In this document: positions 6,638 to 43,677 of the stretch, one piece after another
Layout: each line of letters opens with the position of its first letter
How positions within the stretch are numbered: position 1 is the stretch's first letter
DNA from: an uncultured Anaerolineae bacterium
GTDB taxonomy: Bacteria > Chloroflexota > Anaerolineae > Fen-1058
Direction: 5' to 3'
DNA: 54,061 nucleotides
NCBI GenBank assembly: GCA_964354595.1
Contig: CAYHAR010000001.1
Coordinates: 1 to 54,061, forward strand
Position numbers and translations under genes: made by a program
Notes under the pieces: model-generated
What the model saw: the letters and a program-made list of their open reading frames with translations, nothing else
Database searches by the model: none
What the model was told of the DNA's origin: nothing

Positions 6638-8353
<1,716 letters not shown>

Positions 8354-8395
8354 GTCGCCCGCAGCCGCATAACGCGAAGCGTGTGACAGCTTCTT

Positions 8396-10300
8396 TTAGG
8401 CCACTGTCCGACGCCACGGGTCGGTCGTGCTCAATCGGGCTGTCTCGCCGGGCCAGCGGGCCTTTTGCAAACGGTTGATGGCAATAGCGTTGCGATGTCC
8501 CTGCTCGCCCAATTCGTGTACAGAGTCGGCCTCTCCCTGTTCTTCTGCCTCGCGTGTCAAAACATTCAGTTCTTCTTTCTTGCGCTTAAGGTTACGTTCG
8601 CGCAAGAGCAACGCACTCTGTACGGCCTCGCGCGTCCAGTCGGGCGTTTTCAGAGTCGGGAGTGGCAACGCCTTTGCTAAAAGCTCATCTAGATGTATCC
8701 ATAGGTCCCTGTCTAGGAACTCACGGACTTCATCAGAGCCAAATTCTTGTGAATTACGAATAGCTGCCAAGATCTCACGGTGCATTGCATTGTCAAAGTC
8801 GTTGTTGCTCAATGGGTCAAGATCAAGCGATGTTAATGCTTCATCAACTTGGACAAGGCCATAAGCCGACTGCAATAGTGTTATTAGACAATAGGCTTCT
8901 AGATCAGACTCTTTGCTGGTGACTGTTTCAGCCGATCTCTGCCGCCGCGCCTTTGCTTGTATCTTTTGGGTGAGCTGTCGTGTTATAGTGCCTGCATCCA
9001 CACGCAGCACACGCTCTAGCCGCTGAGCATAATAGTCTCGCTCTGCCGGATTAGTCACGTCTTGGATAACCGACATGACCTGGCTCGAAAACGCTGCCCT
9101 TCCTTTGGGGTCTTTTAAGTCGTACGCAGTGGCAAGAGTCTGGATAACATATTCTACTACAGGTAGGGCGTTTTCAACTAATCGTGGCCAACCGGCAGGA
9201 TCAGCACGGATAACCTCATCAGGGTCTTGACCACCGGGCATCACCAATACTCGAATGCTTACACCCAGATGATTTTCGTCGCCAACCAACCCATGTGCAT
9301 CAAATACTGGTGCTGCATCTCGGTCGAGCTTTTCTCGCGCCACATCCAGCCCGCGCAGCATGGCCTGCACACCCGCCACGTCCGGGTCGAGCGCCAGGAC
9401 AAATTTCTTGCACAGCCGGGCGAGCTGGCGAAATTGCGCCTCGGTCAACGCCGTGCCCATCGAGGCGACGACGTTAGCGTAGCCGGCCTGATGCGCGCCG
9501 AGCGCGTCCATGTAGCCTTCGACGACGATGGCATGTCCCGCGCTGCGGATTGCGTTGCGCGCCAGGTCAATGCCGAAAAGAGTATGGCTTTTGTCAAAGA
9601 GCGGCGATTGCGGCGAGTTGAGGTACTTGGGTTCCTCGCCGGTCAACGTCCGCGCGCCAAAACCGATGGTGCGGCCCTTGACATCGCGGATGGGAATCAT
9701 CAGCCGCCCGCGAAAGCGGTCATAGACGCTGCCATCCTCATCGCGCTGAACCAGCAATCCCGCCGAGACCAACTCCTCGCGCGAATAGCCGCGATTCCGC
9801 AAATAGCTTTCCAGCGCGTGCCAGTCGTCCAGGCTGTAGCCGAGCTGGAACTTGACGACGGTTTCGTCGGCGATGCCGCGCTGGGTCAAATGCTCTCGCG
9901 CGATTTGCCCTTGCGGCGATGTGCGCAGCAAGTTGTTCAAGTACGTTGTGGCGGCGGCCAATGCTTCGCGCAGTCGCTCGTTTTGCTTGTCTTCGGCCTC
10001 GGCCTGCGGCGTGCGAGGCTCTAGTTCCACGCCGGCTTTGCGGGCCAGGAACTCTAGCGCCTCGCGGAATTCCAGCCCGTCGCGCTTCATCAAATACGTG
10101 AAAATATCGCCGCCGGTGTTGCACGCGCCAAAGCATTTCCACGTGCCCGTCTCCGGCCAAACGACAAACGACGGTGTGCGCGTGTTGGAATGGAACGGGC
10201 AAAAGCCGGTAAAGCTGCGCCCCGACTTTTTGAGCTTGACCGTCTCCGAGACGAGGTCAACGATATCAATTCGGTTCTTGATCTCGTCTATGACACTCAT
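8396..10300 (-). CDS. dnaG: DNA primase
   Basis: CHC2 zinc finger (FCPFHSNTRTPSFVV...KCFGCNTGGDIFTYLM-like), RNA-polymerase core, and TOPRIM (IVVEGYMDAL). Sits upstream of rpoD as in the classical operon. Confidence 0.9.
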   Translation of the reverse strand: MSVIDEIKNRIDIVDLVSETVKLKKSGRSFTGFCPFHSNTRTPSFVVWPETGTWKCFGACNTGGDIFTYLMKRDGLEFREALEFLARKAGVELEPRTPQAEAEDKQNERLREALAAATTYLNNLLRTSPQGQIAREHLTQRGIADETVVKFQLGYSLDDWHALESYLRNRGYSREELVSAGLLVQRDEDGSVYDRFRGRLMIPIRDVKGRTIGFGARTLTGEEPKYLNSPQSPLFDKSHTLFGIDLARNAIRSAGHAIVVEGYMDALGAHQAGYANVVASMGTALTEAQFRQLARLCKKFVLALDPDVAGVQAMLRGLDVAREKLDRDAAPVFDAHGLVGDENHLGVSIRVLVMPGGQDPDEVIRADPAGWPRLVENALPVVEYVIQTLATAYDLKDPKGRAAFSSQVMSVIQDVTNPAERDYYAQRLERVLRVDAGTITRQLTQKIQAKARRQRSAETVTSKESDLEAYCLITLLQSAYGLVQVDEALTSLDLDPLSNNDFDNAMHREILAAIRNSQEFGSDEVREFLDRDLWIHLDELLAKALPLPTLKTPDWTREAVQSALLLRERNLKRKKEELNVLTREAEEQGEADSVHELGEQGHRNAIAINRLQKARWPGETARLSTTDPWRRTVA

Positions 10301-10356
10301 TTATGACCGCAGACCGCAGACGGCAGACTGCCGCAGCGCAATTCATCCACGAAGGG

Positions 10357-10398
10357 CACGAAGGACACGAAGAACTCTGAATCTTCGTGTCCTTCGTG
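10357..10398. repeat. perfect 17-bp stem hairpin (CACGAAGGACACGAAGA / TCTTCGTGTCCTTCGTG, 8-nt loop) built from tandem ACGAAGG words
   Basis: Arms at 10357..10373 and 10382..10398 are exact reverse complements. Located between the small membrane-protein gene stop (10412) and the dnaG start (10300). No U-tract follows on the transcribed strand. Confidence 0.6.
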
Positions 10399-32226: not shown

Positions 32227-35200
32227 ATGGCCGACCTATCTACTCTCAAACCCGGCACCCGCGTCTTTGACCGGCATCGCAATCGCGAGCGGCTCATCCA
32301 CGCCGTCGAGCCTCTGGGCCGCGTGGTCAAAATCTGGTTCAAGGACTCGCACACCGGCGCACTTGAGCCGATGACATTTCCGGTCTCTGAAGTCGAGCGG
32401 CGATTTGAGAACATGGAATCGGGGGCATCCGCTTTCAGGGCCGACAGCGAAACGGTGCGCCTGTTGGCCGAAAGCTACCGGCTGCAACACGCCTACCTCT
32501 TCAATCCCGTCTTTGCCACCGAGACCTCGCTCATTGACGCCCTGCCCCACCAGTTGATCGCGGTCTACGATCACTTGCTCAAACAGCCACGCTTGCGATT
32601 CCTACTGGCTGACGATGCTGGCGCAGGCAAGACCATCATGGCCGGCCTCTACATTCGCGAAATGCTCTTGCGCCGCCTGATCAATCGCGTGCTGATCGTT
32701 CCCCCGGCGGGTCTGGTGGGCAACTGGGAAAAAGAGCTACGCAACTTGTTCCGGTTGCGCTTTCATATTCTCGAAAGCGCGGACGCTCAACGCGACAATC
32801 CATTCCTCGATCCGCGCAACGACCTGGCAATCGTGAGCGTGGACACACTCTGGCGTGACCGGATGCGCCAGCACTTGTTCGATGCTCCGCCCTATGACCT
32901 CGTCATCTTTGACGAGGCGCACAAGCTCTCGGCTCGCCGCAACGCGGATGGGACGGTGGACAAGTCCAACCGCTACTCGCTGGCCGAAGAAATCGCCGCG
33001 CAAAAGAATCATCTGCTGCTGCTCACCGCCACGCCGCACATGGGCAAAGATGAGCCCTACTATTTCCTCTGGCGATTGCTTGAGCCTGAACTGCTGGCGG
33101 CCCAAGAGGCTTTTGACCGCATGAGCGCCAAACGCAGACGTGCTCACCTGCTGCGGCGGATGAAGGAACAAATGATCCACTTTGATGGCGGCAAGATTTT
33201 CCCGCCGCGCGAGAGCAAGACCATCGAATACCCGCTCGTCCAGGGCGTGGGACAAGAGCAAGACCTGTACGATCAGGTCACGCAATACTGCGAGACGCAC
33301 TATGACCGCGCACGACGTCGTAACCAGTCGGCGGCCAAGCTGGCGATGGGCGTCTTGCAGCGGCGACTGGCTAGTTCCACCTGGGCGCTGCTCAAATCGC
33401 TGGAACGGCGCGAAGCCAAGCTGACTGAGGATGTGCGCCAGATGGAAGCTGGGCTTGTGGCCGCCGAAGAATTCCAGCGCAAGCAAAGCACACTTCCCAC
33501 CGTGGATTTGCGCGAGGCCAAGACCGGCGACGAAGAAGAAACCGAAGACGAGCAGGAAGAGTCCGAGCGCTTTGACGACGACCTGGCCGGCGCGACCGAA
33601 GCGCGCACGATTGACGAGTTGCGCGTCGAACTGGAAGAGGTCAAGCGACTCGTCGTGCTGGCTCGCTGTGTGTACGATCTCAAGCACGAAAGCAAGTTTG
33701 ACAAACTGTGGCAAGCGCTGCAAGACTATGCCGAGACCAAAGTCTTGATCTTTACCGAGCACCGCGACACAGCCGATTTCCTGGTGGGCCGATTGGAAGG
33801 GCTGGGGCTGACCGGCAGGCTCGCCCGAATTGACGGCACGCTGGATTACAAGCGGCGCGAAGTCGAGGTCGAGAAATTTCGCGAGCCACGCGGCGCGCGT
33901 TACCTTGTCGCCACCGATGCGGCGGGCGAAGGCATCAACTTGCAGTTTTGCTGGCTGCTGGTCAATTATGACATCCCGTGGAACCCGGCGCGCATCGAGC
34001 AGCGCATGGGCCGCGTCCATCGTTACAAGCAAAAGCACGCCGTCCTGTTGCTCAATCTGGTGGCCTCGGGCACGCGCGAAGGACGTGTGCTCAAGGTCTT
34101 GCTCGAAAAGCTGGAACGCATCCGCAAGGAATTGGGCAACGATAGCGTCTTTGATGTGATCGGCCAGCAGTTCAAGGGTAAATCGCTGTCCGAACTCATT
34201 TTCGAAGCGACCGTCGGAGGCCGCGACAGAGAAGTGGCGCAAGAGATTGATCAAGGCGTGACGGCCGACAAGGTCAAGGCTCAACTGGCCGAGCAAGCGC
34301 GCAAGGTTGAAGTGGCAGAAGTGCGCAGCCTGCTCGAGGCGCTCAAGCAGCAACAAGAATCCGCCGAGATGAAGCGCATGATGCCAGCCTATGTGCGCGG
34401 ATTCTTTCACGACGCCGCGCCGCTCGTGGGCGTCACGACCGAGGGCGACGTGGCCGGCATGTTCCGCGTGACCGACTGCCCTGACACGGTTCAACGCGCG
34501 ATAGACACCTACCCCGAACAAATCCGAGACGCGCTGACGTTCGACCGCGTGCTCGCCATGCCGGAAGACGCGCTTCAGCCGCAGGCTATTTATCTGCATC
34601 CTGGCGAGACCACGTTTGATGCCGTGGCGACCTTGTTCCAGGGCCACCATGATCACGCGGGCGAACGCGGCGGGGTGTTCTTTGACGAAAGCGCTGATGC
34701 GCCTTACCTGTTTTACCTGGCCAAGGTGCCCATCATTCGCGAGCCAGGCACGAACGGCGAAGCGCCTCGAATCCTCGACGAAGCGATGCTGGGGATCCGG
34801 CGCGATGCGGATGGGCGTTGTGAAGCGCTCCCTGCGCACTGGCTGATGACGCTCCTCGCCGCCGGCGAGGGCGATAACCTTGCAAAGGTTCCGGAACCTT
34901 TGCAAGGTTGGGACGATCTCGCTCCCGTTGAGGCGTTCCTGTACGAGACTGAAGGCACGCCGAGGCTGGAGCGACTGCGCGCTGAAGCGTTAGAACGCTT
35001 GCCGGAGCGACAAAAACAACTGCGCGAAGGTTACAACTTGCGCGAGGCCGAACTGCTCGAACAGCGCCAGGTGCTCAAGGATGCCGTTGCCAAAAACATT
35101 CCGGCGGCCAAGACCAAGCTGGCCGAATGCGAGCATGAACTCGACGCGCTCGACGCCAGACGCGCCGAAACCGAATCAGCCTATATTTCCGAGATTGACC

Positions 35201-35676
35201 GGATGGGCCTGGGGCCGGTGACGATTTACGTTCGCGCGCTCGTGTTGCCCATCCCGCCCGATTCCCCTGACGGGGATCTGCGACAAGCTCAACGCCGCCG
35301 TGACGACAAGGTCGAGGCGATTGCGATGAAGGTGGCCCGCGATCATGAAGTAGGATGCGGCGCGACGGTGGAAGACGTGAGCGACCCGCAGCGCAAGATG
35401 GGCTTTGACCTGCGCTCGGTTCGGCCTGATGGCTCGGTGCGCTTTATCGAGGTCAAAGGCCGCGCCCGTGTGGGCGATCTGGATCTGACGCCGAACGAGT
35501 GGGCACAGGCCAACAATCACCGAGAAAAGTACTGGCTGTACGTCGTGTTCAACTGCGAGACAAAGCCAGATCTCAGGCGCTATGCTGACCCAGCGGGCAA
35601 GGGCATCGGGCGGCCTAAGGGCGGCGTGACGATTGACGCCGACGACTTGCTCGACCTGCCCGGCGAATGTGATTGA
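32227..35676 (+). CDS. SNF2-family SF2 helicase with C-terminal DUF3883 (restriction-endonuclease-like) domain
   Basis: Motif I DDAGAGKT, motif II FDEAH, motif III LTATPHMG, motif V ATDAAGEGINLQ, motif VI WNPARIEQRMGRVHRYKQ. Acidic stretch EETEDEQEESERFDDD. C-terminus GFDLRSV...FIEVKGR...EKYWLYVVFNC. Confidence 0.85.
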   Translation: MADLSTLKPGTRVFDRHRNRERLIHAVEPLGRVVKIWFKDSHTGALEPMTFPVSEVERRFENMESGASAFRADSETVRLLAESYRLQHAYLFNPVFATETSLIDALPHQLIAVYDHLLKQPRLRFLLADDAGAGKTIMAGLYIREMLLRRLINRVLIVPPAGLVGNWEKELRNLFRLRFHILESADAQRDNPFLDPRNDLAIVSVDTLWRDRMRQHLFDAPPYDLVIFDEAHKLSARRNADGTVDKSNRYSLAEEIAAQKNHLLLLTATPHMGKDEPYYFLWRLLEPELLAAQEAFDRMSAKRRRAHLLRRMKEQMIHFDGGKIFPPRESKTIEYPLVQGVGQEQDLYDQVTQYCETHYDRARRRNQSAAKLAMGVLQRRLASSTWALLKSLERREAKLTEDVRQMEAGLVAAEEFQRKQSTLPTVDLREAKTGDEEETEDEQEESERFDDDLAGATEARTIDELRVELEEVKRLVVLARCVYDLKHESKFDKLWQALQDYAETKVLIFTEHRDTADFLVGRLEGLGLTGRLARIDGTLDYKRREVEVEKFREPRGARYLVATDAAGEGINLQFCWLLVNYDIPWNPARIEQRMGRVHRYKQKHAVLLLNLVASGTREGRVLKVLLEKLERIRKELGNDSVFDVIGQQFKGKSLSELIFEATVGGRDREVAQEIDQGVTADKVKAQLAEQARKVEVAEVRSLLEALKQQQESAEMKRMMPAYVRGFFHDAAPLVGVTTEGDVAGMFRVTDCPDTVQRAIDTYPEQIRDALTFDRVLAMPEDALQPQAIYLHPGETTFDAVATLFQGHHDHAGERGGVFFDESADAPYLFYLAKVPIIREPGTNGEAPRILDEAMLGIRRDADGRCEALPAHWLMTLLAAGEGDNLAKVPEPLQGWDDLAPVEAFLYETEGTPRLERLRAEALERLPERQKQLREGYNLREAELLEQRQVLKDAVAKNIPAAKTKLAECEHELDALDARRAETESAYISEIDRMGLGPVTIYVRALVLPIPPDSPDGDLRQAQRRRDDKVEAIAMKVARDHEVGCGATVEDVSDPQRKMGFDLRSVRPDGSVRFIEVKGRARVGDLDLTPNEWAQANNHREKYWLYVVFNCETKPDLRRYADPAGKGIGRPKGGVTIDADDLLDLPGECD

Positions 35677-35735: not shown

Positions 35736-35999
35736 ATGCGCGAGATTGGTGTGCGGGAGCTAAAGGTAAAAGCCTCGGAAATCGTGCGCAGCGTGCGCAA
35801 GCGACGCGCCCGCTATATCATCACATATCGCGGGCGGCCCGTGGGCCTGCTATCACCGCTCGATGCCCAGGAGCCGAGCCGCGCGGATTCCAGCGAGTCT
35901 CCAGCCTGGGATGAGTTGACGCGGCTGGGCAAAGAAATCGGACGCGGCTGGCCGGCGGGTGTGAGCAGCGCCGACGTTCTTTCGGAGATGCGACGCTGA
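35736..35999 (+). CDS. type II antitoxin, Phd/YefM family
   Basis: MREIGVRELKVKASEIVRSV...YIITYRGRPVGLLSP. 87 aa. Stop overlaps the toxin start (TGATG). Confidence 0.8.
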   Translation: MREIGVRELKVKASEIVRSVRKRRARYIITYRGRPVGLLSPLDAQEPSRADSSESPAWDELTRLGKEIGRGWPAGVSSADVLSEMRR

Positions 36000-36436
36000 T
36001 GGCCCGACCCTTTACCGTTGACGCGAGCGTGTTTCTCAACGCTTTCAATCCGTCCGAGGCAGGTCATGCGGAAAGCCAGCGCGTGTTGGCCTGGCTGCGG
36101 GAACAGGCCACGCCCATCATCGTGCCGACGCTGGTGCTGCCCGAAGTGGCCGCCACCATCAGCCGCGTGCGGGGCGATGCGGCGCTGGCTCGCGATTTTG
36201 CGAGCGCCTTGAGCCGATTGCCCAATCTAGTGCTCGTCAATCTCGACACGACGTTGGCCCAGCAAGCCGCCGATGCCGCCGCGCAATACAGGCTGCGCGG
36301 CAGCGATGCCGTATACGCCGCCGTCGCATTGCGTTTTGGCACGGTGCTGATGACGCTCGACCGCGAACAGCGGGAACGGTTGGATCAAGTTTTGACCTGC
36401 CGTTATCCGACTCAAGTTTTGGCCGAAATCAAGTGA
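35999..36436 (+). CDS. vapC: type II toxin VapC (PIN-domain ribonuclease)
   Basis: PIN acidic residues are in context: FTVDASVF, LPEVAAT, GSDAVYAAVA, LMTLDRE. Confidence 0.8.
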   Translation: MARPFTVDASVFLNAFNPSEAGHAESQRVLAWLREQATPIIVPTLVLPEVAATISRVRGDAALARDFASALSRLPNLVLVNLDTTLAQQAADAAAQYRLRGSDAVYAAVALRFGTVLMTLDREQRERLDQVLTCRYPTQVLAEIK

Positions 36437-36444
36437 AGAATATT

Positions 36445-36719
36445 ATGGCAGCCGTTATGGTTGGACATATTGAGGTGACGCCCGATGTGTGCGGCGGTAA
36501 ACCGCACATTTCCGGTCATCGCATCGCGGTGCAGGATATTGCCATCTGGCACGAGCGGCTGGGCCTCGACCCCGACGAAATCGCGACTGAGCATTGTCTT
36601 ATTACCACGACCATCGTGCAGAAATAGATGCGTCTATCTGCGCCGACGAAGCGTTCATGGCCGAGTTGCGCCGCCATACGCCATCCAAAGTGATAAAGTT
36701 CCGTGCCCGAGCAAATTAG
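36445..36719 (+). pseudogene. DUF433-family gene remnant with internal deletion/frameshift
   Basis: Frame 1 reads IEVTPDVCGGKPHISGHRIAVQDIAIWHERLGLDPDEIATEH and then hits a premature stop (36625..36627). The typical DUF433 C-terminus ALSYYHDHRAEIDASI... continues in frame 0 from 36591 to the TAG at 36717..36719. Confidence 0.5.
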
Positions 36720-36746
36720 ATTCTACATGTTCGTATGAATTAGCCT

Positions 36747-36809
36747 GGACACAGATGAACACAGATTCCACAGATGTGTTATCTGTGTTCATCTGTGAAA
36801 TCTGTGTCC
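36747..36809. repeat. CACAGAT/ATCTGTG palindromic element, copy 1
   Basis: GGACACAGATGAACACAGATTCCACAGAT-gtgtt-ATCTGTGTTCATCTGTGAAATCTGTGTCC. Ends 15 nt upstream of the methyltransferase ATG. Confidence 0.85.
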
Positions 36810-36824
36810 TGAAAACCTGACTCT

Positions 36825-39686
36825 ATGACAAGACGCCTGATCGAAGAAGCCTTTCCGCTCAAAAAAGTCTCTGAAGACTCCAAGCACGAAAAGAACGTCC
36901 GGCACGGCCACATCAGCACGCTGCACATCTGGCCGGCCCGCCGGCCGCTGGCCGCTTGCCGCGCCGCCATCATCGCCGCGCTGATGCCCGACCCTGGCGA
37001 CGACAAAGCGCGCGAAGACCTCTGCCGCCGCATCGGCAACATTACCCGCTGGAAATCCGAAAACGGCCCTGACCTTCAATTCTTTCGCGACGAAATCCGT
37101 AAAGCGTTCGGCGGACGCGCGCCCAAAGTGCTCGACATGTTCGCAGGCGGCGGCGCGATCCCGCTGGAGGCGATGCGCCTGGGTTGTGACGTGACCGCGA
37201 TTGATTACAACCCCGTGGCGTGGTTCATCCTCAAATGCACGTTGGAATTTCCGCAGAAACTCGCTGGCAAGACCTGGCCCTTGCCGGTTAGTGGGACACA
37301 GATGAACACAGATGACACAGATAAAGAAAAGGAAAATCTGTGTTCACACCTGCACTTGCGTGCGGTGCAAGTGTCTGCGCAATCTGTGTCCAATCCAAAG
37401 GCCGTGCAGGCTGCGATGGATTTGGGCGCGCAAGAGGGCGACCTGGCCGCGCACGTGCGCTACTGGGGCAACTGGGTGTTGGAACGCGCGCGCGAGGAGC
37501 TTGCGCCGTATTACCCCACGATTGACGGCAAGCCAACCGTGGCTTATCTCTGGGCGCGAACTGTGCCCTGCCAAGACCCCAAGTGCAGCGCGACCGTGCC
37601 GCTGTTGAAAACTCTGTGGCTGTGCAAGAAGAACAACAAGCGGCGGGCGCTCCGACTCAAGCCAAATGTTGAATCGCGACGAGTAGAGTTCGAGATTTGG
37701 GAACCCGACGATGACGATGCTGTTGATCAAGGGACAATGAGCCGCGCAGGAGTTCAATGTCCGTGTTGTGGTGCTATTTTGCGGATGGATTACATACGGG
37801 CATGTGGTGAACAGAACAAAATTGGAATGCAGATGACCGCTGTGGTAGTAGGCGGAGAAGATGGTAAAGAATACAGGCGACCTACAACAAATGACTTTGA
37901 TGCATTTAAAAAGACGCAAGGTGCACTAGCACGGCAGCCAGCAAACCTCGTAGTAAACGAAGCCTTCAACCCAAGCAACACTCGCTCGATATCAATTCAG
38001 TTGTACGGATTTCACCGCTTTGCTGATTTCTTCAACAACCGCCAACTCTTGGCTATGACCGCTTTCGCTGGGCAGGTGGAGCGGGCGAAATTGGAGATGA
38101 ATGTTCTCGCCTATCCACCCCATTGGATTGACGCGATAACTGCATACTTGTCTCTCGCAGTTGACAAATTGGCGGACTACAATAGCTCACTGGCACGCTG
38201 GCTCAATGGCCTTGAAGCTATTGCAGGCACATTCGGAAGATTCGCTTTGTCGATTATGTGGGACTATGCAGAGGCGTGTCCGATATCCGACTCAACTGGT
38301 AGCTACATGAATGCAGTTCAGTGGGTAGCCAACTACGTTGACCATGCTTTGATTGCAGCACATGATTCTCCTCATCCAAGTGTAGACCAACATCCTGCGC
38401 AGACTCTACATGCACCTGTGAGCTACGATCTTATCGTAACTGACCCACCATACTATGACGCGATCTCCTATGCTGACATTTCGGATTTTTTCTATGTTTG
38501 GCTCAAGAGAACTGCAGGAATCTCGTATCCCGAACCTTTTGCTGGAGAGCTTACTCCCAAGAACGAGGAGTTGGTTCAGAACGCAACCAAGCATGGCAGT
38601 GAATTATTAGCGAAGCGAGCCTATGAAAGTGGCATGGCAGAAGCTTTCGGGGCAGCATTTGGCAATCTCAAGGAGAATGGCCGACTGGTCATTGTATTCG
38701 CACACAAGGATCCATTTGCGTGGGAGACCCTTGCGGAAGCAATGATCGCGGCAGGTTTTGTCGTTGTTGCCTCGTGGCCAATCAGCACAGAAAGAGTCGT
38801 ACGTTCAAGAGCATTGGCAGTAGCTTCTTTGGCTTCATCGATTTGGCTTGTCTGTCGCAAGCGCCTCGCTGATGCTGGCATTGGCCGCTATGTGGAAGTC
38901 AAGCGCAAAATGCAAGAGCGCATCACCGAGCGGCTGCGCTACTTTTGGGATCAGGGTATCTCTGGCCCGGACTTTATGTGGGCCGCCGTCGGCCCGGCGC
39001 TGGAAAGCTATTCCACTTACCGCGAAGTGCGGCGCATGGACGGCTCGCCGTTCACCGTGGGCGAATTCCTGCGTGAAGTGCGGCGGCTCGTCGCCGACTT
39101 TGCGCTCAGCCGCATCCTGCATGGGTCCAGCACGGAAGGGCTGGACGAGTGGACACGGTATTATCTGATACACCGCTCCAGCTTTAGCCTGGTTGCCGCG
39201 CCCGTGGGCGAGTGCATCCTGCTCGCGCAAGGCTACGGCCTCGACCTCAATGAGATCAAGGGGTCGCGCGGCATCCTCGTCAAAGGCAAAGCGAAAAAGG
39301 CTGTGGACGAGGACGAAGACGCCGACTCTCCTTTCCCGTCAGAAACGGGGGAGGAGGCAAGAGGTGGGGGCGGCAGTGACATTCGCCTGCTTTCCTTCGA
39401 CGAGCGCAAGCGCGACGACCTGGGCGAGCCGCATCCGTCCGGCGGTCTCCCATTGATAGACATGCTGCACCGGCTCATGCGGCTGTGGCAGGCGGGCGAT
39501 ACCGAAAAGTTGACTGCCTATGTCCAGCAGCACGGCCTCAGCCAGAATGACTTGTTCTGGGCTGTGGCGCAGGCCATCCTCGAAATGGCCGACCCCAAGA
39601 CCAAAGAGCGCGCGCTACTTGAGGCGCTCGTGGCGTGGGGGCGAGGCAAGCCCGCGCAGGCGGCCGATCAACCTGCACTCATTTGA
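36825..39686 (+). CDS. DUF1156-type DNA methyltransferase (DPPY; N6-adenine or N4-cytosine class)
   Basis: N-terminus LIEEAFPLKKVSEDSKHEK...HIWPARRP, SAM motif DMFAGGGAIP (37134..37163), Cys ribbon CQDPKC...CPCC, catalytic DPPY (38442..38453). Hosts an in-frame repeat insertion at 37294..37391. Confidence 0.85.
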   Translation: MTRRLIEEAFPLKKVSEDSKHEKNVRHGHISTLHIWPARRPLAACRAAIIAALMPDPGDDKAREDLCRRIGNITRWKSENGPDLQFFRDEIRKAFGGRAPKVLDMFAGGGAIPLEAMRLGCDVTAIDYNPVAWFILKCTLEFPQKLAGKTWPLPVSGTQMNTDDTDKEKENLCSHLHLRAVQVSAQSVSNPKAVQAAMDLGAQEGDLAAHVRYWGNWVLERAREELAPYYPTIDGKPTVAYLWARTVPCQDPKCSATVPLLKTLWLCKKNNKRRALRLKPNVESRRVEFEIWEPDDDDAVDQGTMSRAGVQCPCCGAILRMDYIRACGEQNKIGMQMTAVVVGGEDGKEYRRPTTNDFDAFKKTQGALARQPANLVVNEAFNPSNTRSISIQLYGFHRFADFFNNRQLLAMTAFAGQVERAKLEMNVLAYPPHWIDAITAYLSLAVDKLADYNSSLARWLNGLEAIAGTFGRFALSIMWDYAEACPISDSTGSYMNAVQWVANYVDHALIAAHDSPHPSVDQHPAQTLHAPVSYDLIVTDPPYYDAISYADISDFFYVWLKRTAGISYPEPFAGELTPKNEELVQNATKHGSELLAKRAYESGMAEAFGAAFGNLKENGRLVIVFAHKDPFAWETLAEAMIAAGFVVVASWPISTERVVRSRALAVASLASSIWLVCRKRLADAGIGRYVEVKRKMQERITERLRYFWDQGISGPDFMWAAVGPALESYSTYREVRRMDGSPFTVGEFLREVRRLVADFALSRILHGSSTEGLDEWTRYYLIHRSSFSLVAAPVGECILLAQGYGLDLNEIKGSRGILVKGKAKKAVDEDEDADSPFPSETGEEARGGGGSDIRLLSFDERKRDDLGEPHPSGGLPLIDMLHRLMRLWQAGDTEKLTAYVQQHGLSQNDLFWAVAQAILEMADPKTKERALLEALVAWGRGKPAQAADQPALI
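37294..37391. repeat. CACAGAT/ATCTGTG palindromic element, copy 2 (inside the methyltransferase CDS, read in-frame)
   Basis: GGACACAGATGAACACAGATGACACAGAT-aaagaaaaggaaa-ATCTGTGTTCA-[36-nt nested palindrome]-ATCTGTGTCC. Translated as GTQMNTDDTDKEKENLCSHLHLRAVQVSAQSVS. Confidence 0.85.
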
Positions 39687-39689
39687 TTA

Positions 39690-39769
39690 GGACACAGATG
39701 AACGCAGATAAACACAGATAAAAATCAAAAAAAAAGAAAAATCTGTGAAATCTGTGTGCATCTGTGTCC
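39690..39769. repeat. CACAGAT/ATCTGTG palindromic element, copy 3
   Basis: Starts 4 nt after the methyltransferase stop. Three CACAGAT-type units, an A-rich loop (aaaaatcaaaaaaaaagaaaa), then three ATCTGTG units. Confidence 0.85.
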
Positions 39770-39787
39770 AAAATAGAGGAGGCGATC

Positions 39788-40210
39788 ATGGCGGAGGGCA
39801 AGCACGCCGACCTGACGGAAAAGATCATTGGCGCCTTCTACAGAGTCTATAACACGTTGGGCTATGGCTTTTCCGAAAAGGCCTATGAAAATGCGCTGGC
39901 GATAGAGCTGCGTAAGCTCGGCCTCAAGGTCGAGCAACAGGCCCGCATCGTCGTCTATTACGAGGGCGAGGTGGTGGGCGAGTATCAGGCCGATCTCGTC
40001 GTCAACGACGTCGTCATCGTCGAGCTCAAAGCCGTCCGCCAACTGGCCGACGAGCACGAAGCGCAACTGCTCAACTATCTCAAAGCCACACCGATTGAGG
40101 TTGGCTTGCTGCTCAACTTTGGCCCCAAAGCCGAAATCAAACGCAAGGTCTATGACAACGAGCGCAAAGGTTCCTTGGCTTGGACAAAGGACACAGATAA
40201 ACACGGATGA
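39788..40210 (+). CDS. GxxExxY-family protein (PD-(D/E)xK-like)
   Basis: ATG at 39788 follows AGGAGG. Contains LTEKIIGAFYRVYNTLGYGFSEKAYENALAIEL...VVIVELKAV...HEAQLLNYLKAT...GLLLNFG. The last ~8 codons and the stop lie within repeat copy 4. Confidence 0.75.
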   Translation: MAEGKHADLTEKIIGAFYRVYNTLGYGFSEKAYENALAIELRKLGLKVEQQARIVVYYEGEVVGEYQADLVVNDVVIVELKAVRQLADEHEAQLLNYLKATPIEVGLLLNFGPKAEIKRKVYDNERKGSLAWTKDTDKHG

Positions 40211-40263
40211 ACACAGATAAAAACATAAAAGAAAATCTGTGTAATCTGTGTTCATCTGTGTCC
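40189..40263. repeat. CACAGAT/ATCTGTG palindromic element, copy 4
   Basis: GGACACAGATAAACACGGATGAACACAGAT-aaaaacataaaagaaa-ATCTGTGTAATCTGTGTTCATCTGTGTCC. Ends 18 nt upstream of the DUF499 ATG. Confidence 0.85.
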
Positions 40264-40281: not shown

Positions 40282-43200
40282 ATGGCAGCACCGCAACCCT
40301 GGCATCAACTCTGCAAGATCCGCGAGGACGTTCGCACCGGCACGCTCACGCTCGACGAGTTCGCCGCTGACCTGAACGCTGTCCGGACAGGCGAAGCGCC
40401 CGCCGTCTACAAGAACCCCGACGCCTTTTTCTCCCGCACCTATCCCACCTACAAGATGAAGACGCTCGTCCGTGACGTGCTGCATCGGTTGAGCGGAGAA
40501 GGCGGCAAGCCCATCCTGCACATCCAGGTGGCCTATGGCGGCGGCAAGACGCACACGCTCATCACGTTGTTGCACCTGGCCGAGCACGGCGCGGAATTTG
40601 CCGATCATCCCACCGTCCGTGAGTTTCTCGACTTTGCGGGACTCGGCGGCGGCAAGGTGCCGCGCACGCGCGTGGCGCTTTTGCCCTTTGACAAGTTTGG
40701 CGTCAAGGAGGGCCTCACCGTTCTGGGGCCGGATGGCAAGCCGCGCACGGTCAAGACGCCCTGGGGCGCGCTGGCCTATCAACTCGGCGGCGATGCGGCC
40801 TTTGCCCGCGTCAAGGAGCACGAAGACGATTACGTCACTCCCGCCGAGCCGTTGCTAGTTGACCTGCTCAAGCTGCCCCAGGCGCAAGGCCTCGCGACAC
40901 TCATTCTGATTGACGAGGCGGTCTGGTACTATCGCAATGCGGTGGACAATCAGCCGCGCCGATTTGGGATCATCAAAGACTTTTACCAGGTGCTCACGCA
41001 AGCGGTCGCCAAAGTCAACCGAGCCGCGATGGTGGCCGCGCTGATCGCCTCGCGCGTCGAGGCCAACGACGAGACCGGCGCGAAATGCCTCAAGGTGTTG
41101 GAAGATGTCTTTGGCCGCATGGCTGAGGCCATCGAGCCGGTCGTCAAAGACGACGTGTCCGAAGTCTTGCGCCGCCGCCTGTTCGAAGTGGTGCCCGGCG
41201 AAGAACAGCGCCGGCCCAGCATAGACGCGCTGATGGCCCAGATGCAAAAGCTGCCGTTGCGCGACGCGCAAAAAGATCAGGCTGCTTACAACCGGCTGAT
41301 GCAGGCGTATCCGTTCCACCCTGACCTGATTGACGTGCTCTATTCCAAGTGGACGCAGTTCAGCGGCTTTCAGCGGACGCGCGGCGCGCTCCGTCTGCTG
41401 GCGCTTGCGCTGCGCAACGTGGGCACGGACGATCCGTTCCCCGTCATCGGCCCGCACGCGCTTCTGGCCAGGGACGACCTCTCGCCCGCCCTTGTCGAGC
41501 TGATCAATTGCTGCGAAGAAAAGGAAAAGTGGACGCCCATCTTGCGCGGCGAACTGGACAAGGCGCGCGAGGCGCAGAGCGGTTTCCCGTCGCTCAAGGA
41601 TCGCGAACTCGAGCAGGCCGTCATTGCCACGTTCCTTCATTCGCAGCCCACCGGCCAACGCGCCGATCCATCCGAACTCTACGTCCTGCTCGCGCACCCG
41701 AAGGTGGATCCGCTGGCGCTTGGCGAAGCGCTCAAGAAATGGCGCGACCTGTCGTGGTTCCTTATCGAAGACTCGACCGCATGGGCGCTCAGCACCCGAC
41801 CGAACCTCACGCACATGCACGTGCGGGCGATGGAGCGCCTGCCCGAGCCCGCCGTGGATGACGAGTTGCGCAAGCGCATCCAGGGCACGGCTGACCTCAA
41901 GCAGGCCGACGACGGGGTGATACCTCACGCCTTGCCTCAAGGCCCACAGGATGTGCCCGATAACGTCGAGGGCCTGCGCTATCTCATCCTCGGCCCCGAG
42001 TGCGCCGTTGATCCTGGCAAGCCGCTGCCCAAAGCCGTCGAGGATTATTTCAAGATCACGACCGGCCCCAAGAATCCCCGCACCTATGCCAACACGCTGG
42101 TCGCACTGGCTCCCGATCATGCTCGACTGGCCGGTTTGCGCGATCAGGTGCGGCGCTTTCTCGGCTGGCGCGGCGTCGAAACCAGCGACGAGTTCAAATT
42201 GCTGTCCGACCTTCAACGCAAAGAACTCGCCCGTCGCAAGCAAGCGTCGCAGGATGGTCTCTCCGATGCGGTGCGTGCCACCTACAGCGTCTTGTTGGCT
42301 GTGGACGAAACAGGCCGCGTCGTCGCCAAAGCGATTCCATCCGAGCTGGGCCAGCCGCCGTTCGAGCGCATTAAAAAGCTCTTGTCCGAGTCCGAACGCC
42401 TGCTGATGTCCACGCTCGATCCCGAGTTGCTGCTGCCCGGCAGCTATTTTGAACTGTGGGGGCCGGACGAGAAAAGCAAAAAGGTGCAAGACCTGGTCTC
42501 GGCGTTTGCCCAGTTCCCTCGCTTGCCCAGATTGCTGCGTCCACGCGCTTTGCGGGATACCCTCGTGCGCGGCGTGCAGGCTGGCAAGCTGGTCTTGCGC
42601 CTCGTCCGCGACGACGGCTCGATTCGCACTTTCTGGATGCTCCCGCCGGACGAAGACGCGCTGGCGCGTCCGCAGCTCGAAGTGCTCCCGGCGGACACGG
42701 CAGAGCTTGCCAACCTCGAGCCTGAATTGCTTATCCCAGGCACAGTGTCCGAACTGTGGCCAGTCTCGGGCGACCCGGTTCGCGTCTCCAGCCTGCGCAC
42801 CTTTTTTGACGGCAAGCGCGCGCCTCGCCTTCATTCGCCCGATGTGCTCGATGCTGCAATCCGCGCCGCTGTTCAGCGCGGCAGCCTGATGGGCCGGCAG
42901 GGAACCAAGACCTATCTCCGCGAGCCGTTGCCCGCTGGCAATGTGGCAGACGATTTGGAGTTGCTGACGCCACCGCCCGCCGTTCGCGGCGCTGACCTCG
43001 GCCCCAAGGGATTGCCGGAAGCATGGCACGCTGGCAAAGCTTCACTTGATGTGATTGCCGGTGCACTTGCCAAACGGCGCGGCTACGCCGTTCCGTGGGT
43101 ACTGTTGCGGGATGGCGTGAGCGAGGCGCTGTCGGCGCACCTGTTTGAGGTGGCCGAGGGCAGCACTCCCTGGCCCTGCACACCGGACGCGCTTGACCGC

Positions 43201-43677
43201 GTCAATTTCCGCACGGTCGAAGTCATCGAAGTAGACCCGGCTGAATTAGTAGGTGCGGGCATTCAGTATGCGGGGACAGAAGGCACGCCCACACTCCGCA
43301 AAATCAAAGAAGCCCTGGAGCAAACTCGTGGGCAGGCTATCCCCGGCGACGTATTCCGCAAGGCCGTCGAGGGCGCGGTCAACAAGGGCATCATCACTAT
43401 CGCCGATTTGGGCGTCAAGGCGCTGCCGAATGCCGAGGCGCTGCTCAAACTCTGCGCCCGCCTGCCCAAGGCAACACTTGTTGCAGAGGCCGCGCTCACA
43501 CCCAAGCAACTCCAAGACCTGGCCGGCATCATCGCGCAACTCAAACAGACCGCGCCGGACTTGGAGTTTGCTTTCCGTGTAGTCATCACCGCTGAAGGCG
43601 AAAGACCGAGTGAGGAAGTACTGGCGGAGTTGAATAAACTGTTGAATGATGTAAAGAGTGGGTGGAAGATGGAGTAA
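40282..43677 (+). CDS. DUF499-type P-loop ATPase (BrxC/PglY-like)
   Basis: AGGAG lies 7 nt upstream. N-terminus PWHQLCKIREDVRTGTLTLDEFAADL, Walker A GGGKTH (40537..40554), Walker B TLILIDEA. 1131 aa. Confidence 0.8.
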   Translation: MAAPQPWHQLCKIREDVRTGTLTLDEFAADLNAVRTGEAPAVYKNPDAFFSRTYPTYKMKTLVRDVLHRLSGEGGKPILHIQVAYGGGKTHTLITLLHLAEHGAEFADHPTVREFLDFAGLGGGKVPRTRVALLPFDKFGVKEGLTVLGPDGKPRTVKTPWGALAYQLGGDAAFARVKEHEDDYVTPAEPLLVDLLKLPQAQGLATLILIDEAVWYYRNAVDNQPRRFGIIKDFYQVLTQAVAKVNRAAMVAALIASRVEANDETGAKCLKVLEDVFGRMAEAIEPVVKDDVSEVLRRRLFEVVPGEEQRRPSIDALMAQMQKLPLRDAQKDQAAYNRLMQAYPFHPDLIDVLYSKWTQFSGFQRTRGALRLLALALRNVGTDDPFPVIGPHALLARDDLSPALVELINCCEEKEKWTPILRGELDKAREAQSGFPSLKDRELEQAVIATFLHSQPTGQRADPSELYVLLAHPKVDPLALGEALKKWRDLSWFLIEDSTAWALSTRPNLTHMHVRAMERLPEPAVDDELRKRIQGTADLKQADDGVIPHALPQGPQDVPDNVEGLRYLILGPECAVDPGKPLPKAVEDYFKITTGPKNPRTYANTLVALAPDHARLAGLRDQVRRFLGWRGVETSDEFKLLSDLQRKELARRKQASQDGLSDAVRATYSVLLAVDETGRVVAKAIPSELGQPPFERIKKLLSESERLLMSTLDPELLLPGSYFELWGPDEKSKKVQDLVSAFAQFPRLPRLLRPRALRDTLVRGVQAGKLVLRLVRDDGSIRTFWMLPPDEDALARPQLEVLPADTAELANLEPELLIPGTVSELWPVSGDPVRVSSLRTFFDGKRAPRLHSPDVLDAAIRAAVQRGSLMGRQGTKTYLREPLPAGNVADDLELLTPPPAVRGADLGPKGLPEAWHAGKASLDVIAGALAKRRGYAVPWVLLRDGVSEALSAHLFEVAEGSTPWPCTPDALDRVNFRTVEVIEVDPAELVGAGIQYAGTEGTPTLRKIKEALEQTRGQAIPGDVFRKAVEGAVNKGIITIADLGVKALPNAEALLKLCARLPKATLVAEAALTPKQLQDLAGIIAQLKQTAPDLEFAFRVVITAEGERPSEEVLAELNKLLNDVKSGWKME

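Follow-up and report, generated by a model that had tools for sequence, protein, structure and literature searches.

The palindromic elements E1-E4 are probably a selfish cassette, built of a nuclease gene and palindromes, together with gene-less copies of it, which would have invaded an anti-phage operon. A mobile element with heptamer palindromes and a nuclease gene is apparently undescribed. The window (the whole stretch of DNA analysed, 54,061 nt) contains the following features.

32227..35676, + strand: hmaA, SNF2 helicase with a NOV_C/DUF3883 C-terminus (PADLOC HmaA, 596.8 bits); host operon, not element.
36747..36809, + strand: E1, gene-less palindrome with 3 + 3 CACAGAT heptamers, between the DUF433 pseudogene and the start of hmaB; fold z -6.3.
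36825..39686, + strand: hmaB, DUF1156 DNA methylase (PADLOC HmaB, 435.7 bits; Pfam DUF1156); carries E2.
37294..37391, + strand: E2, gene-less palindrome, in frame within hmaB (codons about 157-189).
39690..40263, + strand: full-length cassette of outer left arm, gene and outer right arm; 574 nt.
39690..39769, + strand: E3, complete palindrome, left end of the cassette; GAGGAGG and the start codon (ATG) of the GxxExxY gene come next; z -8.7.
39788..40210, + strand: GxxExxY / PDDEXK_3 nuclease gene, 140 aa, between E3 and E4.
40189..40263, + strand: E4, complete palindrome, right end of the cassette; AGGAG and the hmaC start codon (ATG) come next; z -9.4.
40282..43677, + strand: hmaC, DUF499 ATPase (PADLOC HmaC, 373.2 bits); host operon.

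The four CACAGAT palindromes were all recovered at the coordinates, and in the positions relative to the genes, that the earlier note had reported, with the termini GGACACAGAT...ATCTGTGTCC. Each arm holds about three (A)CACAGAT heptamers spaced 9-10 nt apart. The window contains the word CACAGAT 24 times, with 22 of the occurrences inside E1-E4, against a shuffle expectation of 5.2 ± 2.1 (0/100 shuffles reach 24). Between the end of E1 and the methylase ATG (36825) lie 16 nt, E3 begins 4 nt past the methylase stop, and 19 nt separate the end of E4 from the DUF499 ATG (40282). The elements are 63-98 nt in size, have terminal inverted repeats and lack coding capacity; the right arm of E2 is interrupted by a nested 27-nt hairpin (37347-37373). 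Folded as single strands they reach a DNA minimum free energy of -19.9 to -22.2 kcal/mol (z -4.7 to -9.4; 0/200 shuffles fold equally well), and -34.7 to -41.2 kcal/mol with RNA parameters. The 25-30 bp earlier proposed for the stem holds for its span but not for its continuity, as the stem consists of three 7-10-bp helices with 1-3-nt internal loops where the spacers lie. Single elements mix the heptamers CACAGAT, CGCAGAT and CACGGAT. The left arms of E1-E4 are 83-93% alike among themselves and 59-79% alike to dispersed copies, and the four are the least degenerate members of a CACAGAT family of about ten in the genome. Four of these approximately ten elements in the 4.58-Mb assembly lie within 3.5 kb, where a uniform spread predicts about 0.008. 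E1-E4 are thus a genuine local cluster, and a generic REP scattered at high copy number, the outcome that the earlier note had named as telling against a local role, is not indicated. The copy number is a lower bound, given an assembly of 586 contigs with one element at a contig break (C37/C332).

The junction genes were correctly listed in the earlier note, which missed the GxxExxY gene between E3 and E4 and the DUF433 gene just 5' of E1, which is frameshifted. The product of 39788-40210 matches Pfam PF13366 (149 bits vs a cut-off of 22) and NCBIfam TIGR04256 (144.9 bits vs a cut-off of 35), and these only. Residues D69 and E79-x-K81 and the motif GxGFxExxY (G27, E30, Y33) are invariant across 35 relatives. 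The AF2 model (pLDDT 86.8) has a PD-(D/E)XK fold, with Cas4, lambda exonuclease and Hjc resolvase as the best structural matches. The last seven codons of the gene (DTDKHG after a shared Lys-Asp junction) and its stop are encoded within E4. E3, the gene and E4 (39690-40263) would make up one full-length copy, both ends of which are complete palindromes, and E1 and E2, which lie 2.9 and 2.3 kb upstream, would be gene-less copies. The cassette layout is shared with locus L001, which encodes a 75% identical protein next to a TPR protein and a glycyl-tRNA synthetase, and locus L092 (protein 77% identical) has it with an upstream palindrome and a right arm only. The palindrome-gene-palindrome layout recurs in L001, L004 and L005, and there as here its palindromes are direct repeats of each other.

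The Hma anti-phage system consists of HmaA/B/C (PMC8565338, PMC11232893). In the window hmaA, hmaB and hmaC are all present, in order and intact, and the operon lodges a Phd/PIN pair, the broken DUF433 gene, the GxxExxY cassette and the two gene-less palindromes. Five orthologous Hma operons contain neither these palindromes nor the GxxExxY gene. The link to the methyltransferase module drawn in the earlier note is incidental, and the real partner of E1-E4 is the GxxExxY gene. E1-E4 appear to have inserted into the operon rather than to belong to it. The hmaB gene around E2 is intact, at 953 codons. One of the three frames of the left arm of E2, as read from the sequence, is free of TGA, and E2 is tolerated, it would seem, because it landed in an insert-tolerant linker and in the one stop-free frame of the element.

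The symmetry of the elements is concentrated in the heptamers. Left and right arms are complementary at 91.5% of heptamer positions vs 62.6% of spacer positions (odds ratio 6.4, p = 4e-15). Among the arm mismatches G·T (47) does not differ significantly from A·C (36; p = 0.27), and transversions exceed either. Since the symmetry resides in heptamers and not in spacers, and a G·U wobble bias is lacking, protein-binding DNA sites are favoured over an RNA stem. This favours the heptamers, one helical turn apart, as candidate protein-binding sites on DNA, in line with the array suggested earlier. That the arrays are iteron-like operators for a regulator of the Hma operon is scarcely credible: three heptamers per arm at one helical turn and a position just upstream of start codons would suit operators, but one copy lies inside a coding region, a promoter-like site is found at none, other copies adjoin unrelated genes, and orthologous operons do without the arrays.

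The same evidence bears on the proposal, also made in the earlier note for the stoichiometry of three proteins, that E1-E4 form functional RNA hairpins in the polycistronic Hma mRNA and, through processing, stability or translation coupling, set the relative levels of HmaA, HmaB, HmaC and the nuclease. In its favour, E1-E4 share the coding strand of a single operon, three coincide exactly with cistron junctions, and a Shine-Dalgarno sequence and an ATG come within 25 nt after both E3 and E4; the RNA folds are strong (-35 to -41 kcal/mol), and some effect of E1-E4 on the mRNA is almost unavoidable. The proposal is nevertheless improbable. Hma orthologues work without the elements, and the same elements are present at unrelated loci. 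The sense strand lacks a wobble bias and is dominated by transversion mismatches, and spacer pairing has been lost, a change that selection on a stem would not have allowed and that a simple hairpin has no need of. Neither a terminator nor a promoter signal falls on E1-E4, and no family of Rfam 15 reaches its gathering score for them (sub-threshold microRNA-precursor look-alikes give at most 38 bits vs thresholds of 51-100). The stems are followed by A-rich sequence (GTCCAAAA) and lack a terminator-like tail. Intrinsic termination, which takes a G+C-rich hairpin followed by a U tract, was rejected, as no terminator-like match was found at any element.

The association of gene and repeat was observed both within the genome and across phyla. 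All PF13366 matches of this genome (7/7) are flanked by heptamer-array palindromes: close GxxExxY paralogues pair with CACAGAT, CACGGAT or AACGGAT, distant ones with ACAGGAT, CACTGA or CGCAAAG, and gene-less copies of all six heptamer classes occur at other places in the genome. Three further palindrome classes (CACGAAG, TAGTC, CAAGG) have no resident gene in this 93%-complete assembly. A survey covered 60 GxxExxY loci from at least eight phyla, among them Chloroflexota, Planctomycetota, Bacteroidota, Acidobacteriota, Nitrospirota, Nitrospinota and Verrucomicrobiota. Within 200 nt of the ends of the GxxExxY gene, phased runs of CNGAT (at least 3) have a density of 3.07/kb vs 0.085/kb elsewhere in the same loci (36x; 60 loci). 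Such a run is present at 47 of the 60 loci; the other 13 have none, and some of those carry other words, e.g. CACGGAA. The orientation is fixed, the commonest layout having the forward arm before the gene and the reverse arm after it (22 of 60 loci). The closest relatives of the GxxExxY protein (86%, 77% and 75% identity) are likewise paired with CACAGAT and lie among unrelated genes. Heptamer class clusters on the protein tree (14 changes vs 21.3 in shuffles; 0/200 as low). Word specificity looks loose, with relatives at 75% identity using CACAGAT or CACGGAT, and the co-variation of gene and arm is equally expected from plain co-inheritance of one unit.

Recombination sites for swapping cassettes had been raised earlier; in the form that the palindromes serve the defence operon in the manner of integron attC, with the GxxExxY gene as one cassette, the idea is very improbable. 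It would account for a gene bracketed by two direct palindrome copies, and at the same Hma junctions relatives do hold other cargo (toxin-antitoxin pairs; an AAA ATPase with a partner gene), while hmaB is a compositional mosaic. The cargo of the relatives, however, is not flanked by heptamer palindromes, and the low-GC block of hmaB (about 37600-38800) is not bounded by E2 and E3, starting 230 nt past the former and ending 800 nt before the latter. Across the 60 loci only GxxExxY genes were found between such arms, and the commonest layout has one left and one right arm, not two complete sites. Integron attC sites are marked by a cassette array next to an IntI integrase and by diverse cargo.

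Insertion polymorphism was observed. In contig C114 a gene-carrying element splits the end of a gene that is uninterrupted in two congeneric genomes and in one of the same family, and the element is flanked by a 37-nt target duplication; a Flavobacterium copy is flanked by a duplication of 26 nt. Long duplications were found at these two loci only; a short target duplication of fixed length was not seen, and the alignment of about 55 loci shows no direct repeat next to the arms. The gene-less copy on contig C515 is missing from one congeneric genome. The pattern CACAGAT-N2-3-CACAGAT has 13 matches here and as many as 25 in other genera; the three remaining genomes of the genus have 0-1 each (the reversed-pattern control gives 0 in every genome). 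The word family is patchily distributed across the bacterial family. Of 121 genomes from the class, 73 have PF13366, at 1-10 copies each, and several of the GxxExxY gene copies are pseudogenes. Among 50,697 phage records the family is absent, and among 72,556 plasmids just 8 have it. The suggestion of a REP/MITE-like mobile element is supported by the more degenerate dispersed copies, the empty sites within the genus, the patchy word family and the same architecture across phyla.

A low but appreciable probability is given to a different origin of the gene-less palindromes, as passive scars which, like solo LTRs, are left by gene loss; host recombination or an unlinked enzyme would then move the cassette, and GxxExxY would have its role elsewhere, e.g. 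as an addiction or defence nuclease. Unequal recombination between the flanking direct-repeat palindromes would leave exactly one palindrome, decaying copies of the gene are present, and the PD-(D/E)XK fold is without known transposase-like chemistry. A full cassette at the site of E2 would, however, have broken hmaB until its precise deletion. Gene-less copies of the CACAGAT class exceed gene-carrying ones about nine to one, tandem palindromes adjoin some of the genes (C123, L002, L011), and the invariance of the catalytic residues across phyla argues that selection maintains the nuclease activity.

The selfish cassette was compared with known systems. REPIN-RAYT consists of REP doublets and a REP-associated tyrosine transposase (PMC3116915, PMC3337134). 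Shared with it are a short, hairpin-forming, non-coding palindromic repeat dispersed mainly between genes, one small enzyme gene flanked by cognate repeats (here E3/E4, 7/7 paralogues and 47/60 loci), paralogues that pair with different repeat words, and the lack of a short target duplication. The enzyme of REPIN-RAYT, however, is an HUH/Y1 transposase related to TnpA of IS200/IS605, and here it is a PD-(D/E)XK nuclease (PF13366/TIGR04256). The unit there is a doublet of inverted REPs, and here two inverted hairpin-forming arms, each of 2-4 heptamers phased at 9-10 nt with unpaired spacers. REPIN-RAYT reaches tens to hundreds of copies per genome and is reported as mostly vertically inherited, whereas about ten copies occur here, with a patchy distribution within the genus and proteins 50-77% identical across phyla.

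Prokaryotic MITEs resemble E1-E4 in being small and non-coding, with terminal inverted repeats and a longer gene-bearing relative with the same ends, and Rickettsia palindromic elements resemble E2 in lying in frame in a coding gene and being translated as an extra loop (PMC10969869). That 2024 review of MITEs makes no mention of heptamer arrays, an endonuclease partner or Chloroflexota. MITEs have a parent that encodes a known transposase, and a short fixed target duplication; the gene-bearing form here encodes only the GxxExxY nuclease and neither a DDE nor any other known transposase, and no such duplication accompanies it apart from the two long cases. Elements of the IS200/IS605 type have hairpin ends recognised by a small enzyme and produce no target duplication. 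The elements studied here likewise are very small, carry structured subterminal palindromes and insert without a short duplication, but they end in symmetric inverted arrays instead of a pair of dissimilar imperfect hairpins, their enzyme has an unrelated fold, and a TnpB-like second gene is lacking. Free-standing homing endonuclease genes and TnsA of Tn7 also provide a small nuclease with no evident role beyond spreading its own DNA. TnsA demonstrates that a PD-(D/E)XK fold can act in transposition, although it works only with a DDE transposase, which is absent here. Homing endonuclease genes are not known to have bounding arrays of binding sites or gene-less satellites.

To our knowledge a nuclease of ~125 aa has no strand-transfer activity, and GxxExxY is therefore not a classical transposase. 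For its DNA binding, cleavage and copying route we infer the following course. The full-length form would comprise a left phased-heptamer array, a gene for a ~125-aa GxxExxY (PDDEXK_3, PD-(D/E)XK-fold) nuclease and an inverted right array. Several nuclease protomers would occupy the heptamers, all on one face of the duplex by virtue of the one-turn spacing, and their binding would pair the two arms or stabilise an extruded cruciform. The nuclease would then cut DNA, and host repair or replication would copy the element, with or without the gene, to new and preferably nearby sites. Gene-less palindromes would be moved in trans, or be left after loss of the gene between two flanking palindromes.

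A wider proposal, held here at somewhat less than an even chance, is that a new, widespread class of prokaryotic mobile elements, found in at least eight phyla, has GxxExxY/PDDEXK_3 proteins as its sequence-specific nucleases, inverted, helically phased heptamer arrays as ends and gene-less satellites that can land in frame inside genes. A 125-aa PD-(D/E)XK enzyme and host repair would then be enough for mobility. If this is true, PF13366/TIGR04256, a large family given as 'function unknown' in the one survey that names it (PMC3424549), would acquire a function.

Re-reading of the sequence confirmed four palindromic elements, E1 to E4, in the host Hma anti-phage operon, at the positions and with the shared GGACACAGAT...ATCTGTGTCC termini described in the earlier note. 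A nuclease gene between E3 and E4 had been missed there; the left arm of E4 supplies its last codons and stop. The Hma system, named in PMC8565338 and studied in PMC11232893, was assigned with PADLOC models.

Features of the Hma operon region (window coordinates, forward-strand numbering)
32227-35676: hmaA, SNF2 helicase (PADLOC, Hma system)
35736-36436: Phd/PIN pair, a lodger in the operon
36433-36719: DUF433 gene (46 bits), apparently frameshifted at about 36590-36600, its C-terminal part in a different frame to a TAG at 36717
36747-36809: palindrome E1, GGACACAGAT...ATCTGTGTCC termini
36825-39686: hmaB, DUF1156 methylase (PADLOC, Hma system)
37294-37391: palindrome E2, inside hmaB, same termini; a 27-nt hairpin (37347-37373) is nested in its right arm
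39690-39769: palindrome E3, same termini
39788-40210: GxxExxY/PDDEXK_3 gene, 140 aa (Pfam PDDEXK_3, 149 bits; NCBIfam TIGR04256 'GxxExxY protein', 144.9 bits)
40189-40263: palindrome E4, same termini
40282-43677: hmaC, DUF499 ATPase (PADLOC, Hma system)

A 111-aa ORF at 36485-36820, which reads through E1, matched no family at E-values up to 10, has off-frame composition and is probably spurious; the real gene at this place is the DUF433 one. In the 54-kb window there are 24 occurrences of the heptamer CACAGAT or its complement, 22 of them inside E1-E4; shuffled windows contained 5.2 ± 2.1, and none of 100 shuffles reached 24. Each arm carries three heptamers at a spacing of 9-10 nt. As single strands the elements fold strongly with DNA parameters (z of -4.7 to -9.4 against shuffles) and reach -35 to -41 kcal/mol with RNA parameters. 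The predicted hairpins are not single continuous stems but consist of three short helices with small internal loops at the spacers. A palindrome of like build with another word (three CACGAAG, loop, two CTTCGTG) lies at 10348-10398; no GxxExxY gene with the CACGAAG word was found in the assembly.

A role of the palindromes in RNA processing or stability was weighed against one as DNA sites. In 27 non-redundant arm pairs, left and right arms are complementary at 91.5% of heptamer positions and 62.6% of spacer positions (odds ratio 6.4, p = 4e-15); pairing is lost exactly at the spacers, which fits repeated binding sites and not a selected stem. Among mismatches, G·T (47), which still pair in the sense RNA, do not significantly exceed A·C (36; p = 0.27), and transversions (127) outnumber both. 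This wobble test was applied first to nine complete hairpins (G·T 5, A·C 10); its extension to the 27 arm pairs again gave no bias. No promoter-like or terminator-like site coincides with E1-E4, and a lenient Rfam search gave no family at its threshold, only the sub-threshold microRNA look-alikes that any long hairpin gives. Some incidental effect on RNA is likely; that the palindromes exist for the sake of such a role is not supported, and neither is a reading of them as operator arrays.

The GxxExxY protein is a predicted minimal PD-(D/E)XK nuclease for which no close relative has been characterised. Residues G25, G27, F28, E30, Y33, D69, E79, K81, Q93, the NYLKAT block and R119 are invariant in 35 aligned relatives, so that the D...ExK nuclease motif is complete. 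AlphaFold models the protein with confidence (pLDDT 86.8), and the best structural neighbours of the model are Cas4 SSO0001, lambda-type exonucleases and archaeal Hjc resolvases, with TM-scores that are modest (0.4-0.53). A sequence search of the PDB gave no match, even at E = 1. The large family PF13366 was found in 73 of the 121 genomes sampled from the class, with 1-10 copies per genome; relatives were found in only 8 of 72,556 plasmids and in none of 50,697 phage records.

CACAGAT is found 295 times in the whole assembly (586 contigs, 4.58 Mb, 60.6% G+C), fewer than the roughly 385 expected from composition; clustered CACAGAT elements number only about ten, four of them in the Hma operon. 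High copy number throughout the genome with no enrichment here, which the earlier note took as the mark of a generic repeat, was therefore not observed. Five dispersed elements lie on contigs C23, C37/C332, C45, C135 and C515, and a CACGGAT variant on C452. The end of C37 and the start of C332 overlap within an element, so that the assembly broke at a copy and element counts are therefore lower bounds. Left arms are 83-93% alike among the four local copies versus 59-79% against the dispersed ones, a mutual likeness which makes E1-E4 the youngest set, derived from one another.

Seven PF13366 matches were found in the assembly, and all seven are flanked by palindromes of the same build. Those outside the window are as follows.

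PF13366 genes elsewhere in the assembly and their heptamer words
C452: ACACGGAT
C114: CACGGAT; left arm upstream, right arm downstream
C123: (A/G)CGGAT; one palindrome upstream, three in tandem downstream (C123 1190-1400)
C15: ACAGGAT
C17: CACTGA; gene fragment
C206: CGCAAAG

A de novo scan of the assembly showed that every gene-linked word class also has gene-less copies elsewhere; the classes CACGAAG, TAGTC and CAAGG are present as palindromes with no resident gene. Two 'wide' arm pairs (C18, C151) were checked for other cargo and held no convincing gene family.

The association extends across phyla. Together with the six paralogues, 54 fetched loci with relatives 50-86% identical, from Chloroflexota, Planctomycetota, Bacteroidota, Acidobacteriota, Nitrospirota, Nitrospinota and Verrucomicrobiota, made a set of 60 loci. 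Phased runs were defined as three or more CNGAT spaced 8-12 nt apart. Their density is 3.07 per kb in the 200 nt next to the gene ends and 0.085 per kb in the rest of the same loci, a 36-fold difference, and 47 of the 60 loci have one or more. A flank statistic (best 7-mer with one mismatch in both flanks) separated real from control flanks weakly (mean 8.5 vs 7.5, p = 0.004) and was replaced by the phased-run counts, being too permissive in A+T-rich DNA. Run orientation is fixed: the commonest layout, seen in 22 loci, is forward upstream and reverse downstream, which places the gene between the arms. A complete palindrome stands on either side of the gene in the window and at three fetched loci (L001, L004, L005), and tandem palindromes occur at L002 and L011.

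The nearest relatives of the window's protein have the same CACAGAT word in unrelated surroundings: one is 86% identical (L052); one, 77% identical (L092) and from a different genus of the family, lies downstream of the gene for a dehydrogenase subunit; and one, 75% identical (L001), lies between a TPR protein and glycyl-tRNA synthetase. Heptamer classes cluster on the protein tree (14 changes versus 21.3 in shuffles), a figure to which near-copies contribute. Close relatives switch between CACAGAT and CACGGAT, so recognition of the two purine positions is probably loose. Eight cassettes are decaying through internal stops, frameshift or truncation (L038, L042, L045, L046, L048, L054, C15, C17), and their flanking arms persist.

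Insertion polymorphism was observed. On C114 the gene-carrying element sits inside a molybdopterin dehydrogenase-like gene, 9 nt short of the stop codon, with an exact 37-nt duplication of the end of that gene on its flanks. The orthologous gene end has no interruption in three other genomes, G213 and G136 from the same genus and G099 from the same family; G169 shares the C114-type insertion, there with further rearrangement. In G169 (L073, 1260-1515) three tandem copies of an 84-nt unit precede the GxxExxY gene; the unit consists of part of the left arm, a Shine-Dalgarno sequence and the start of a short ORF. On the minus strand of C114 (about 10260-10300) the run CATCGGTCATCCGTCATCGGTCATCCGTC, in or close to the dehydrogenase-like gene that lies upstream of the cassette, may be a further short repeat inserted in frame. 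A duplication like that at C114, 26 nt long, accompanies a Flavobacterium copy (L033). The gene-less C515 copy is absent from G136, where its two flanking genes abut. The C23 copy was rejected as a clean empty site: the relative lacks a 155-nt block containing three different small elements, which is not a single event. No short target duplication of fixed length was found at about 55 aligned ends. The duplications, long and variable in length, accord with widely staggered, filled-in breaks and not with a transposase of fixed geometry. The pattern CACAGAT-N2-3-CACAGAT has 13 matches in this genome; the three other members of its genus have 0-1 and other genera of the family have up to 25, and the reversed control has none in any genome scanned.

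Orthologous Hma operons lack E1-E4 and the nuclease gene, which are for this reason not working parts of Hma. E2 was inserted right after the conserved KTWPLP of hmaB, between the SAM-binding motif and the remainder of the enzyme. The linker that follows (37288-37440) is unalignable in five orthologues, each with a different short repeat or palindrome, among them four CAGCAAAT units and then an inverted copy (L070), five GAGCAAGGG units (L067), a G+C-rich hairpin (L068) and CGGAT-type words (L069). Repeated hits mark it as a permissive loop and a hot spot of insertion in frame; because it cannot be aligned between orthologues, there is no clean empty site by which to fix the exact limits of the E2 insertion. 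Two of the three frames of the E2 left arm meet a TGA (GATGA), and E2 is in the third; selection, not design, explains its in-frame state. A second kind of in-frame mini-insert is a 34-nt double palindrome (AACCTTGCAAAGGTT CC GGAACCTTTGCAAGGTT) inside hmaA (34876-34909, about codon 883); orthologues (L067 3323-3355; L068 4048-4080) have a different one (AGACTTCCGAAGTCT...) at about the same codon.

Both operon junctions are variable slots. In relatives the hmaA-hmaB junction holds toxin-antitoxin-like pairs, and the hmaB-hmaC junction an AAA-type ATPase of about 420 aa with a gene of about 190 aa (L067 7850-13100; L068 7775-9411; L070 reverse strand 8029-9839), plus, in L067, three additional genes, one of them for a 616-aa SMC/RecF-like ATPase. 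The earlier suggestion that the palindromes are sites for swapping cassettes is not supported: no heptamer-palindrome flanks were found around the variable cargo of relatives' junctions. Central hmaB (about 37600-38800) has 46-52% G+C versus about 60-65% on either side, and its protein is closer there to L071 than to the closest relatives; this block looks like a recombinant and is not bounded by the elements.

Most likely, E3 and E4 together with the gene between them are a single full-length selfish cassette, and E1 and E2 are locally made gene-less copies. A serious partial alternative, which may hold for E1, is that gene-less copies are scars left after recombination between flanking palindromes removed the gene. 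For the selfish cassette, the nuclease would bind as a multimer to the phased heptamers along one side of the helix, would pair both arms or stabilise a cruciform, and would then cut; host repair or replication would copy the element into new, often nearby, sites. The gene's association with the arrays, their orientation, the insertion polymorphism and the conserved motif are observed, and binding, cleavage and the route of copying are proposed.

The closest known system in logic is REPIN/RAYT (PMC3116915, PMC3337134), from which the present elements differ in that the enzyme is not a Y1 transposase and the arms are heptamer arrays. The in-frame copy recalls Rickettsia palindromic elements (PMC10969869). 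The elements belong to neither: copy number is low, their spread is patchy, and they lack a short target duplication and a known transposase. The searchable literature assigns no function to PF13366/TIGR04256 and mentions 'GxxExxY' in three papers, only in passing; PF13366 is entered as 'Unknown' in PMC3424549, and the 2024 review of prokaryotic MITEs (PMC10969869) mentions neither heptamer arrays nor an endonuclease partner.

The consistent partnership with inverted phased heptamer arrays makes the function of PF13366/TIGR04256 testable at the bench, with protein, candidate site and candidate substrate all defined by sequence. If confirmed, this would be a second nuclease-plus-satellite system beside REPIN/RAYT, built on an unrelated enzyme. 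For annotation, such palindromes at operon junctions or within genes are to be read as lodgers and not as regulators of the host operon. For defence biology, the Hma junctions and the permissive methylase linker repeatedly take up selfish inserts.
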